A DNA stretch of 64,000 nt, taken from NCBI GenBank assembly GCA_052327205.1, contig CM126219.1:67890001-67954000 (forward strand). The letters run 5' to 3'. The number at the start of each line of letters is the position of its first letter. The stretch's first letter is position 1. Made by a program: the position numbers and the translations under genes. The stretch is from Somniosus microcephalus. Taxonomy: Eukaryota. Shown here piece by piece: positions 58,661 to 64,000 of the stretch. The notes beneath the pieces were generated by a model. It saw nothing but the letters and a program-made list of their open reading frames with translations, ran no database searches and had not been told where the DNA came from.

Positions 58661-59148
58661 GATACAGGAGAGCTTCCCCTGAGTACCTGAATACACTGCA
58701 TGAACAGTCCTGTATAAATCTTCCCCAACACAAAAATGTCGCCATCTACAGACAGGTCTTTACACACATCAACTCACATAGGGTCATAGGGGGAAAAATT
58801 CAGTATCGCCCCGTTTGGGGCGCCATTATCGGCCGTGCGCAATGTTTAGCGCCTGGCGCTAATTATCGCCTCCGACTGCAAACTTGGCTTTTATCGCCCC
58901 GGAGGTGATTGGAGCGCTAAATCAGGCGCTACACACCTGCCTTAAGGCGCAAAGGCTGAGGAGTGAGGTGCTAACTCAGAGCGCGGGTGCAGCGCAGGTG
59001 CTGTCAGTTAGCGATGGAACACAGACACACTGGCACCGGGCAGTTCATAAAGGGGAGGGTCGATCTTGCTCTCCAGCCACACCCTGCTCATTGCAGCCTT
59101 GAATCTCGGCCTGGAGAGACCTGTGCCTAAATCTCCCAGCCAAGGACT

Positions 59149-59384
59149 ATGGAGAGGGTGAGAGAACGAGCTCAGCGCTTCAGCGAGCGGGCCTTGGAGG
59201 CTCTGGTTTGTGCGGTGGAGCGCAGAAGATCAATACTGTATCCAGAGAGTGGCAGGAGGCCTTTGCCACGCGAGTACAGAAGAGCGTGGAGGGAGGTGCT
59301 CAGAGCGTCTTCTCATGGAGCATGGTGCCCAGGACCCATACTCAATGCCGAAAAAAGGTCAACGACCTCACTCGGGTCGTCAGG
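59149..59384 (+). pseudogene. Harbinger Myb/SANT-like gene exon 1 (one frameshift)
   Basis: MERVRERAQRFSERALEALV...RRAWREV, then shifted frame RTHTQCRKKVNDL; agg|gtgagt donor; 236 bp. Confidence 0.85.
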
Positions 59385-59525
59385 GTGAGTGGCTTTTTTT
59401 CAATACCTCTCCATCCCTCCATCTCAACCTCACTCTATGGCCAGAGGGTCTTAAAACCCCAATGCCCAACACTCATCCAACACCTATGGCCCTCTCATGA
59501 AACACACACGCACTTTCCACACTTT

Positions 59526-59688
59526 GCATACAATAAGGGCTATTCAATTATGGGAGGCACATCAGGCAAGACCATGGCTGCATACAGTAAGGGCTATTCA
59601 ATTATGGGAGGCACATCAGGCAAGGCCATGGCTGCATACAGTAAGGGCTATTCAATTATGGGAGGCACATCAGGCAAGACCATGGCTG
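59526..59688. repeat. 3 x 54-bp tandem repeat in Myb gene intron 1
   Basis: gcatacagtaagggctattcaattatgggaggcacatcaggcaagaccatggct at 59526, 59580 and 59634. Confidence 0.95.
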
Positions 59689-59722
59689 TATATTTACTCA
59701 GACGCCGTCCTTTTTCTTGCAG

Positions 59723-59885
59723 GCCAAGCTATCTCATAATAGGAGACAGCAGCAACGGACGGGTGGAGGGCGGCCTCAGCTGCAACCCCTCAGCGATCTT
59801 GAGGCGCGCGTCCATAGGATTGTGGCAAGCCGGGTGATCGGTCCCGTCGCCCCTGGAGAGGCCGACCCCATTCTGGACAGCAATG
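59723..59885 (+). CDS. Harbinger Myb/SANT-like gene exon 2
   Basis: tttttcttgcag acceptor; AKLSHNRRQQQRTGGGRP (TGGG motif); g|gtaag donor; 163 bp, phase 0-1. Confidence 0.85.
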
Positions 59886-60044
59886 GTAAGGTCATCACCT
59901 TTTTGTCCTCTCTCGTTCCACTTGTCCCTCACAACACCAGCCTTTGACACTTTCAATCCAACTTACTAAATCGCTGCACTCATTCCTCCCTTACTGCCCC
60001 CCTGTCCTCACACTAAAGCCACTCTTGTACCTCCCTGCTTTCAG

Positions 60045-61021: not shown

Positions 61022-61047
61022 GAGGTGTGACAAAATGTTGTTCATTT

Positions 61048-61056
61048 TTTATTAAA
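61048..61056. terminator. Overlapping bidirectional polyadenylation signal candidate
   Basis: tttattaaa gives ATTAAA on + and AATAAA on -, between the two convergent stop codons. Confidence 0.5.
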
Positions 61057-61318
61057 GGCCGAGGTTCGTGGTCAAACTTTTGTTTAGTGTTTTGCACATT
61101 ATCTCCAGGTTGTGAGAACCAGTTATGTTAATGACTTTTTTCATGTTTCTTTCTATTAGTTTGTCATGAGGAAATGACACACACAGAGTTTGTAAAATAA
61201 TTAAGTTTTTGTATTCAAAATGTACATGTTTGATCTTTGGAATCATTGCTGCCTTGGCCGGCTTAGGGGTTGTGGGTTGGTTTCATTCATGTTGTTCTCA
61301 ATGGCAGAAGCCATTTCC

Positions 61319-62462
61319 TCAGCAGGGGCCTAGAAGCGGCTTGCTATCAGCTTCAACATTGTGGGCTTCCCTCCCGCCTTGGTGCTGCTGACGATCATCC
61401 TCCTCCTCTTCCTCCTCCTCTTCCTCCTCCTCCTCTGGTGGTGCTCCAAGGCCTGGTGGCATTGGCTGGGTCCTGAGGATTGCCAGGTTATGCAGCATGC
61501 AGCACACAACAACGAAGTGGGAGACTCGCTCAGGTGAGTACTGCAGGGCTCCTCCTGAGTGGTCCAGACAGCGGAACCGTTGCTTGAGCACGCCGATTGT
61601 GTGCTCAACGATGTTCCTGGTAGTGAGATGGCTCTCGTTGTATCGTTGCTCAGCAGGGGTGTTGGAGTTATGGAGCAGTGTCATCAGCCAGGTGCACAGT
61701 GGATATCCCTTGTCCCTGAGAAGCCAACCACTTGGGTGATGCGGTGCCTGGAAAAGTTCTGCCACAGTAGTCTGACGCAGGATGAATGCATCGTGGCTGC
61801 TGCCAGGATAGCAGGCATTGACAGCGAGTATCAGCTGTCTGTGGTCACAGGCCAACTGGACGTTTAAGGAGTGGAACCCCTTTCGGTTGCGGAAATCCTC
61901 TGCATTCTCATGCGGTGCCCGCAATGCCACATGTGTGCAGTCAATGGCGCCCTGCACCATGGGGAAGCCCGCTATCCTCGCAAAGCCCATTGCGCATTCA
62001 TGCTGTTTGGCCCGGGTTATTGGGAAAGAGATGTACTCTCGTCTCCTTTTATAGAGGGCATTTGTGACCTGACGGATGCAGCAATGGACCGTGAACTGGG
62101 AGATATTGCCGATGTCCCCAGTAGCTGCTTGAAAGGAGCCGGTGGCATAAAAGTTCAGAGCCACTGTTATCTTCACTGCCACCGACAGAGATGTCCTGCT
62201 CCTCAGTTGAGGCTGCAGATCTGGCTGCAGCAGGTGGCAGAGCTCAGTGACCACCTTCTTGCTGAAGCGCAGCCTTCGCAAACAGTGCTCCTCAGACGTA
62301 GGAGAATTGTTGGCGAAATACCCTGGGAGGGTAAGGTCTCCTGTACAGAGGCCTGTTGGCCCTTCTCCCCCGTCTGGCCATGATTGCCACTCTCTCTCTG
62401 CGTCTCTGTGCCCTCCGAATCTGCAGGCACAGGACAACGGCCCCAATCAGTGCAGCCCCCAT
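61319..62462 (-). pseudogene. Harbinger DDE transposase (HARBI1-like); frameshift near 62300 and probably near 61360
   Basis: ATG 62462 MGAALIG...RRPYPPRVFR; then LRRLRFSK, FYATGSFQ, GAIDCTHV, GSSHDAFIL, DKGY, IVEHTIGVLKQRFRCLD, CCMLHN, poly-E. Confidence 0.93.
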
Positions 62463-62986
62463 AGTATCTTGGCAATCAAAGTAATGAAGGTCAAAAACCA
62501 AAGCACCTGCAAAGTGATGCTCAGTAGCCAAAACTACTTCACATAGCAAAGACTCTATGCAGAAGTCTCTCTTCTCTCTCAGAATCTCTCTCTCTGTCAG
62601 AACGAGTGGTGCAAAAATGTCTACGACAGGAAAAGCCAGGAAGAGGCCGCCTTTAAATAGTCCCCCCCCCCACCGCCCCAGCCCCACAGCGACTGGGAAG
62701 CGTTCCAGTCTACCTGTCGTTGCTTGCGCCAGGCGGAAAGGAGGGGGGTGCCACTCAATATCCATTCTGGGGCGCCACAAGGGCGCTGCACGCTCGAATG
62801 ACGTCAAGATCTGCGGGCGCAGGAGATCAAGGCGGTATTATTTATTGCCGCCGCAAAATGTCTGGTCAATTTTGCGAGAGGCGCAGATATCGCCGCGCCC
62901 GGGCACAAGTTTGCGCCCCATTAGCGCCCTCTTAAGGCGCTAACGGGAGGCGCAAACCAACTGAATTTTTCCCCCATAGAGTCATA

Positions 62987-63874
62987 GGGGGAAAAATTCA
63001 GTATCGTCCCGTTTGGGGCGCGATTATCGGCCGTGCGTAAAGTTTAGTGCCTGGCGCTAATTATCGCCTCCAACTGCAAACTTGGCTTTTATCGCCCCTG
63101 GAGTTGATTGGAGCGCTAAATCAGGCGCTACACACCTCTCTTAAGGTGCAAAGGCCGAGGAGCGAGGCGCTAACTCAGAGCGCTGGCGAAGGTCATGTGA
63201 TATCAGTCAGCAATGGAACACAGACACAATGGCGCTGGCCAGTTCTTAAAGGGGAGGGTCGATCTTGCTCTCCATCCACACCCTGCTCATTGCCGCCTTG
63301 AATCTCGGCCTGGAGAGACCTGTACATCAAATCTTTGGAAAGAACAATGGAGAGGCCCAGGGAAAGAGCTCAGAGTGCAGCCCCATAGTCTCTTCTAAAT
63401 CGATGCAAGGAAGGTCAAAGCAAAATGAACCTGCAAAGTGCTGCTCTGTGCCCAGAACTCCTTCACACAGCGTTGAATCTCTCCAGAAGTCTCTCTCTCT
63501 CTCAGAATGCGTGGTGCAAAAATGTCACCAACAAAAAAAGGCAGAAAGCGGTCACCTTTAAATAGCGCTCTCCCAGTCCCTTCCCAACTGCAAAACGCTC
63601 CCCTCAACCTGTCGTTGCTAGTGGCAGGCGGTAAGGCAGGGGGTGCCACTCAATATCCGGTCCGGGGCGCTACCGGGGCGTTGCACGCTCGATTGACGTC
63701 ACGATCTGCGGGTGCAGAAGACCGTGGCAGTAGTGTTTAGCGCCGCCACAAAATGTCTCGTTAATTTCATGAGCGGCGCAAACATCGCCGTGCACGGGCG
63801 CTGGTTGCTTTGCGCCCCATTAGCGCCCTCTTAAGGTGCTAATAGGAGGCGCAAACCAACTGAATTTTTCCTCC
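62987..63874 (+). mobile_element. 888-bp non-autonomous Harbinger derivative
   Basis: TIR gggggaaaaattcagt / actgaatttttcctcc; TSD ata at 62984-62986 and 63875-63877; both ends homologous to 58789-62975. Confidence 0.96.
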
Positions 63875-64000
63875 ATAGAGTTATACAGCACAGAAAGAGG
63901 CCCTTCGGCCCATCGTGCCTGCGCCGGTCATCAAGTCCTATTTATTCTAATCCCATTTTCCAGCACTTGGTCCGTAGCCTTGTATGCTATGGCGTTTCAA
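63875..64000 (-). mobile_element. CR1 3' end; its (catagagt)n tail continues at 62976-62986 and 58777-58788
   Basis: atagagttatacagcacagaaagaggcccttcggcccatc is the reverse of a CR1 3' terminus, as at 38128 and 56557. Confidence 0.85.

Follow-up and report, generated by a model that had tools for sequence, protein, structure and literature searches.

Two DNA transposons of the Harbinger group lie side by side in the tail of a single CR1-type retroelement in a 64,000-nucleotide stretch of the Somniosus microcephalus genome (assembly GCA_052327205.1, contig CM126219.1, positions 67,890,001 to 67,954,000), hereafter the window. The first, element A, is a full-length but defective transposon, and the second, element B, is a miniature inverted-repeat transposable element (MITE). 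They are arranged head-to-tail in consecutive CATAGAGT units of the tail, with ATA at both flanks of each. This pair probably arose by two independent insertions into adjoining copies of a preferred target. The initial annotation of the window had likewise proposed two independent hits, a proposal supported by the grouping of B with a dispersed MITE (element C), by the separate duplications of A and B and by the presence of extra tail units in paralogous copies of the tail.

The history would have begun when a CR1-type element was inserted with a tail of three 8-bp units. In this shark lineage, a very abundant Harbinger family that recognises an extended, roughly palindromic target would be offered one such target by every CATAGAGT unit, and two separate cut-and-paste events would then have placed a MITE of the B/C family in one unit and the full-length element in the next, with A decaying later through frameshifts. 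Neither insertion would destroy the target of the other, because no more than 3 bp are duplicated and the 5 bases lying between the sites act as right arm for one site and left arm for the other; both targets stay intact and therefore either order of insertion works. Since the tail repeats every 8 bp and 3 bp are duplicated, the spacer must also measure 8+3 = 11 bp. We infer the separate events and their order, as well as the target consensus discussed below.

Structure of the pair

The coordinates of A, B and their surroundings are given in Table 1. Their positions, shared orientation, 11-bp spacer and ATA duplications, as first annotated, were all borne out by the sequence. The length of the spacer is one octamer period plus 3 bp. 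In-silico removal of A and B, each with one copy of its duplication, leaves catagggt-catagagt-catagagt followed by tatacagc, so that the restored tail described in the initial annotation is recovered. What was termed a 'microsatellite' consists of three octamers, one of them imperfect.

Table 1. Features of the window around the A/B pair, with element C and the genes of A (positions are those of the window)
Feature	Position	Strand	Remarks
Element C	54726-55480	.	755-bp MITE of B's family; duplication TCT; just upstream of LINE (long interspersed nuclear element) endonuclease domain
Harbinger transposase relic	57822-58593	+	decayed, much older; forms the single-copy left flank
Outermost imperfect octamer of CR1-type tail and left duplication of A	58777-58788	-	left duplication ATA, 58786-58788
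Element A	58789-62975	.	full-length but defective Harbinger/PHIS transposon, 4,187 bp
Terminal inverted repeats (TIRs) of A	58789-58804 and 62960-62975		16 bp, perfect
Myb/SANT gene of A	59149-61021	+	inferred exons 59149-59384, 59723-59885, 60045-61021; frameshift near 59299
54-bp unit	59525-59692	.	repeated 3.1 times within the first intron of the Myb gene of A
DDE transposase gene of A	61330-62462	-	frameshifts near 62295 and near 61355-61380
Spacer between A and B	62976-62986	.	11 bp: 5 host bases between the right duplication of A and the left duplication of B
Element B	62987-63874	.	MITE, 888 bp; right TIR with one mismatch
Right duplication of B, last octamer and 3' untranslated region of CR1-type element	63875-64000	-	leaves the window

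The ends of the elements stand out from the background. The TIR motif, with up to 3 mismatches allowed, is matched 9 times in the whole window against 1.14 expected, and six of these nine matches fall at the termini of A, B and C. Pairs of TIRs with a 3-bp duplication number 9 in the whole window when at least 11 of the 13 positions must agree; at 12-13 of 13, only A, B and the outer ends of the A..B pair are left. The remaining TIR-like matches (14758, 28238 and 29204, each with 3 mismatches) were dropped as lying in the range of chance; the last two face outwards and enclose nothing. The duplication of A and B can be read either as 3 bp (ATA) or as 5 bp (CATAG), because the TIR begins with G after a C..G site. 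A search of positions 54000-64000 against Rfam gave no matches.

The tail and its relatives

In the sense of the LINE the tail unit is ACTCTATG, and three such units are present after removal of the elements, without poly(A). Another tail, at 56558, shares 87% identity across 53 bp with the final 126 bp of the window. The sequence ahead of that tail is presumably the C-terminus of a LINE open reading frame like ORF2; a Pfam search with the 55-aa piece before it matched no LINE family. In reads of run X22, 220 contigs from paralogous tails depart from the reference just before 63874, and because their consensus ends in two further octamer units, these tails resemble the reconstructed empty site.

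According to PMC2817409, the 3' end of a CR1 element consists of 2-4 copies of ATTCTRTG, and its insertion leaves no target duplication; the octamer motif is also found in PMC4316615. The tail here is like that of amniote CR1 in having three 8-bp units at its 3' end, but differs from the amniote unit at one base, and this difference completes the AGAGT half-site that is common to the three insertion sites of A, B and C. The host repeat, known here from 126 bp, would on this likeness be of CR1 type, although it may instead be a short interspersed nuclear element (SINE) with a CR1-derived tail.

Seven more LINE or SINE 3' ends in the window are related to the tail, at 10489, 14791, 20046, 28562, 38139, 46925 and 56558. 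Their terminal units are CATAGAAT, CATAAGAA and CATAGAAA, and a Harbinger TIR is found in none of them. The tail of a SINE at 57371-57720, with the unit TCACAGAA, is likewise related to that of CR1; the element presumably resembles the elasmobranch HE1 SINE.

A probable target preference and the shared register

That A and B occupy the same register of the tail was already annotated and is confirmed; its cause, absent from that annotation, would on present data be an extended target preference. The site of C, read on the opposite strand, agrees with the sites of A and B at 10 of 13 bases. When the 13-mer from the C site alone is run over the element-free window, at least 10 matches are found at 37 of some 58,100 positions, the sites of A and B included, and these two are the best matches within the 160 positions around the tail. 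In the reverse test, the counts for the 13-mers of the two tail sites are 17 and 22 amongst 58,084 positions. The background for agreement at 10 of 13 is thus 3-6 in 10,000, and the sites of A and B, being units of one repeat, amount to a single test. The likeness holds for lengths of 9 to 19, with a background of 0.03-0.3%; for 7 bases, with 2.8%, it is weak.

All three sites carry C-N-N-A-G-A-G-T on one strand. In the window 3 of the 30 sites of this kind are occupied, compared with none of 42 sites with the AGAAT variant and none of 196 CTNAG sites; the motif was picked after the sites had been seen, so these counts are descriptive. The best guess at the target is a palindrome near ACTC-NNN-GAGT, of which one good half would be enough. 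Extended targets of 9-15 bp are described for all characterised PIF/Harbinger elements (PMC2836001). An extended target of this sort recurs every 8 bp in the tail and would account for the shared register, a coincidence that would then be expected rather than surprising.

Good target sites are occupied in the window at a rate of 2/37 or 3/30, and the chance of a second hit beside the first can be put at roughly 5-10%, a rough estimate from one window. In a family with three copies per 64 kb, such pairs should be common. A stronger form of target preference would be that a Harbinger lineage has its target tuned to CR1 tails made of CATAGAGT units, in which case much of the family would reside in tails, and multimers, phased and head-to-tail with 11-bp spacers, would be regular. 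The position of C, within the body of an antisense LINE, argues against strict specialisation of the family on CR1 tails, and such tuning seems rather unlikely.

Origin of the MITE

Element B consists of 387 bp resembling the left end of A (87.9%) joined to 501 bp resembling its right end (75.7%). The internal junction is the same in B and C, the latter having a 138-bp deletion relative to B. In the right arm, B and C are identical at 448 of 501 positions (~90%), against 397 of 497 (~80%) for A and B, and amongst sites informative for the three elements 73 group B with C, 26 group A with B and 20 group A with C. The longest exact match between A and B is 33 bp. By these comparisons B is assigned to the MITE family of C, and neither to A nor to the subfamily of A. 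The initial annotation had called B the MITE of A; it is indeed a MITE with A-like ends, but in junction and right arm it goes with C.

Both B and C retain the start codons of the two Harbinger genes and the sequence upstream of them, without the coding body. Their fusion point lies at a short TCAG microhomology, and read data contain contigs with further internal deletions around 63168-63407. Two paralogous empty sites for C, at ~41600 and ~22835, are 70-76% alike and do not fix the length of its duplication.

Weighing the alternatives

Several observations weigh against two independent insertions, or leave the case for them thinner than it might be, and are taken here together with the alternatives on which they bear. 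The target consensus is drawn from two independent sites only. Across its first 100 bp, A is identical to B at 94/100 positions, more than either shares with C (87/99 and 84/99). Such likeness could be left by a tandem duplication of one element together with a tail unit, followed by internal deletion of one copy or its conversion to a MITE, a route that would also yield the same orientation and the one-period spacing. Past the ends, however, B follows C down to the exact internal junction, and on this ground the earlier dismissal of a tandem duplication is upheld. The identity at the ends fits conserved termini and the greater decay of an apparently older C: private changes in the first 99 columns number 10 in C and 1 and 4 in the other two, and over 169 columns of shared end sequence there are 15 in C, 6 in A and 7 in B. 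Local gene conversion between the ends of A and B may have contributed, whilst a tandem duplication of the whole is highly improbable. An attempt to date A against B by their private changes (6 against 7) gave no order.

Read evidence comes from four runs (X1, X3, X22 and X23) of 24; 16 others, with shares of 0.10-0.14, were unused. Contigs of X22 and X23, two close samples, cover 57730-58812 with 1 and 0 differences, and so include the left junction of A, with its first 24 bases and a base that tells A from B. These 24 bases fall short of the 31-base rule for a bridge, and X23 is possibly the source sample of the assembly. That both contigs end at 58812 might have meant that other copies have the same flanks, but this reading was set aside, since members of a very large family share 6-7 flanking bases by chance. 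A contig of X3 stops at 58785 and is uninformative on A. The X1 contig, 1,506 bases from a more distant organism, matches the 1,057 bp of 57730-58786 with 40 differences; the 19 letters that follow cannot be aligned to the TIR of A, so A is absent at 58786 in that organism. An empty tail and a tail holding only B would both fit this contig. A joint representing an empty or one-element allele is not amongst the 15 listed, with 314 more beyond these. As to the alleles with none, one or both elements that the initial annotation suggested seeking, the absence of A in X1 has therefore been found, but not an empty or one-element joint amongst those listed.

The junction between A and B is itself not resolved in the read tables of the four runs, and the pair might in principle be an assembly artefact in which two loci were joined through a repeat. 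Each element nevertheless has its own matching duplication, and removal of both yields a normal tail. Exact sharing between A and B extends to at most 33 bases, and a mistaken join made at homologous ends should collapse the pair, not lengthen it. Very little credence can be given to this possibility.

The pair could also have been made at another tail and moved here once, spacer included, as a composite of 5,086 bp by means of its outer TIRs. The outer ends do form a TIR pair (12/13) with ATA on either side, and the lack of an empty allele amongst the listed joints is compatible with arrival in this way. But a double hit would still be required at the donor, and the three units at this site fit both the published 2-4 per CR1 tail and the paralogous tails. 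No second copy of the composite is known, and the left flank has single-copy depth in the four runs. In comparison, the flank contigs have depths of 14-29 and the elements, repeated highly in all four runs, 4.5e4 to 2.9e6, values that indicate high repetition and not a copy number. The mobile 5.1-kb composite of the initial annotation is thus formally possible given its ends, but it is set against a single-copy left flank and two broken genes in A, and a composite arrival seems improbable. In principle, the pair could be moved by transposase supplied in trans, as could any head-to-tail dimer.

Slightly more improbable still is that A and B were inserted on different alleles and were united by out-of-register recombination in the octamers. 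The same spacer would result, and sequence alone cannot tell this history from successive insertion. Two target-driven insertions would be required in any case, and on top of them a crossover within no more than 8-11 bp of homology.

Searches of metagenome contigs gave no family member from which more target sites could be drawn. An exact scan for the left end had 0 matches. A transposase scan was followed for 80 retained loci of 383 confirmed, whose top segments are 25-52% identical, and none of these 80 shares the element ends. A scan for TIRs with a duplication in the 53 metagenome loci of at least 2.5 kb found AT-rich, chance-like pairs only. Two independent insertions into adjoining targets remain, with these points taken into account, the probable explanation of the pair.

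Element A and its genes

The description of A as a full-length Harbinger holds in that the element is complete in outline and has perfect TIRs, but it contains three frameshifts. Because these break both genes, A is unable to move itself. The transposase belongs to DDE_Tnp_4 (Pfam E 2.4e-37, above the cut-off) and is 71% identical to a HARBI1-like protein of Pristiophorus, the best amongst the matches listed (502 homologues); sawshark, sevengill shark, rays and white shark supply the top HARBI1-like relatives amongst these, in keeping with an elasmobranch host. The Myb domain is cut in two by a frameshift, and each piece lies under the curated cut-off of Pfam (PF13873 with E 0.0014 for the first and PF13837 with E 0.13 for the second). 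A tblastn search with a fused shark protein, P0011, detects the gene at E 6e-8. Its predicted exon structure is modelled from GT/AG sites and reading frames.

At seven positions A is unlike nearly all other copies amongst the 40 rows listed in the read tables, with 740 more beyond these, and such private positions are consistent with decay following insertion. The three 54-bp units in intron 1 of the Myb gene are 96% alike, and one X3 contig skips 144 bp there; the number of units may differ between copies of the A family.

Relation to known systems

Element A has the traits of the PHIS/Harbinger superfamily as defined in PMC4122938, namely a DDE_Tnp_4 transposase, a Myb/SANT gene, 16-bp TIRs and a 3-bp duplication, and is a member of it. 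The duplications of A, B and C are ATA, ATA and TCT, none of which is TWA or TNA. With TWA in 0/3, the element falls outside the narrow PIF/Harbinger group of Han (2015). It is closer to NuwaII (PMC4482050), with which it shares two genes (DDE_Tnp_4 and Myb/SANT), a length of ~4.2 kb, 16-bp TIRs starting with GG (the NuwaII range is 13-46 bp) and C and G flanking the 3-bp duplication, as in 3/3 sites here (C|NNN|G), with the same ambiguity between 3 and 5 bp. Unlike NuwaII it has no TNA, although ATA, ATA and TCT each fit one of the two fixed bases of TNA. NuwaII was compared by its published description, and with 0/3 duplications TNA the element is not filed under it; no shark member is present amongst the listed rows of Table S7 of that paper.

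Zebrafish Harbinger3_DR (PMC3016246, PMC2836001) offers a parallel in its two required proteins, its MITE derivatives and its extended palindromic target, but its target is AAACACCWGGTCTTT and its duplication CWG. The pairing itself has precedents elsewhere. Dimers of transposable elements are common in Drosophila, mainly through site preference (McGurk and Barbash 2018, PMC5932611), and the P-element dimers described there are likewise head-to-tail family members, brought about by site preference, with a spacer of host target sequence. P-element dimers, however, occupy one site and have one 8-nt duplication between the copies, whereas here there are neighbouring sites, two duplications with 5 host bases, and partners from different subfamilies. 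In zebrafish U1 genes, Dada-U1A_DR and Dada-U1B_DR are different members in tandem in a multicopy host sequence (Kojima and Jurka 2013, PMC3706591), as are A and B; Dada is strictly specific for small-RNA genes and its copies share one site, while the Harbinger elements here are loosely specific. No paper was found on Harbinger elements in CR1 tails or in neighbouring repeat units, a weak negative from a search without Repbase and most subscription journals.

Neighbouring features

The relic in the left flank is a much older Harbinger transposase, matched by tblastn at 25-29% identity with many stops and E values down to 3e-13. The CR1 tail starts ~180 bp past it, so that an old Harbinger, a LINE tail and two younger Harbingers stand side by side. 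Elsewhere in the window, a CG-rich tandem array at 18065-18911 repeats a 54-bp unit ~15 times and shows higher-order periodicity at 107, 161 and 254 bp, and three 68-bp units with 97% identity lie at 31348-31553.

Implications

The locus is a tidy example of known rules, in which Harbinger target preference and double insertion are combined, and it allows the target of an abundant Harbinger family in elasmobranchs to be guessed at for the first time. The duplication of this family is not an exact fit to any of the six PHIS groups so far published. Two surveys that included few cartilaginous fish report such elements as absent from sharks or elephant shark (PMC4482050, PMC9179366), while a later grey reef shark genome paper places Harbinger amongst the commonest types of DNA transposon (PMC12498223); the present family indicates a high copy of such elements in sharks, contrary to the absence reported in the two surveys. 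If the family were in addition tuned to the CR1 tail, which seems rather unlikely as noted above, it would be a DNA transposon specialised on the tail of another transposon, a new host-within-host strategy. A still-spreading LINE would then keep supplying arrays of harmless landing sites, and the multimers formed in them would seed composites or satellites.

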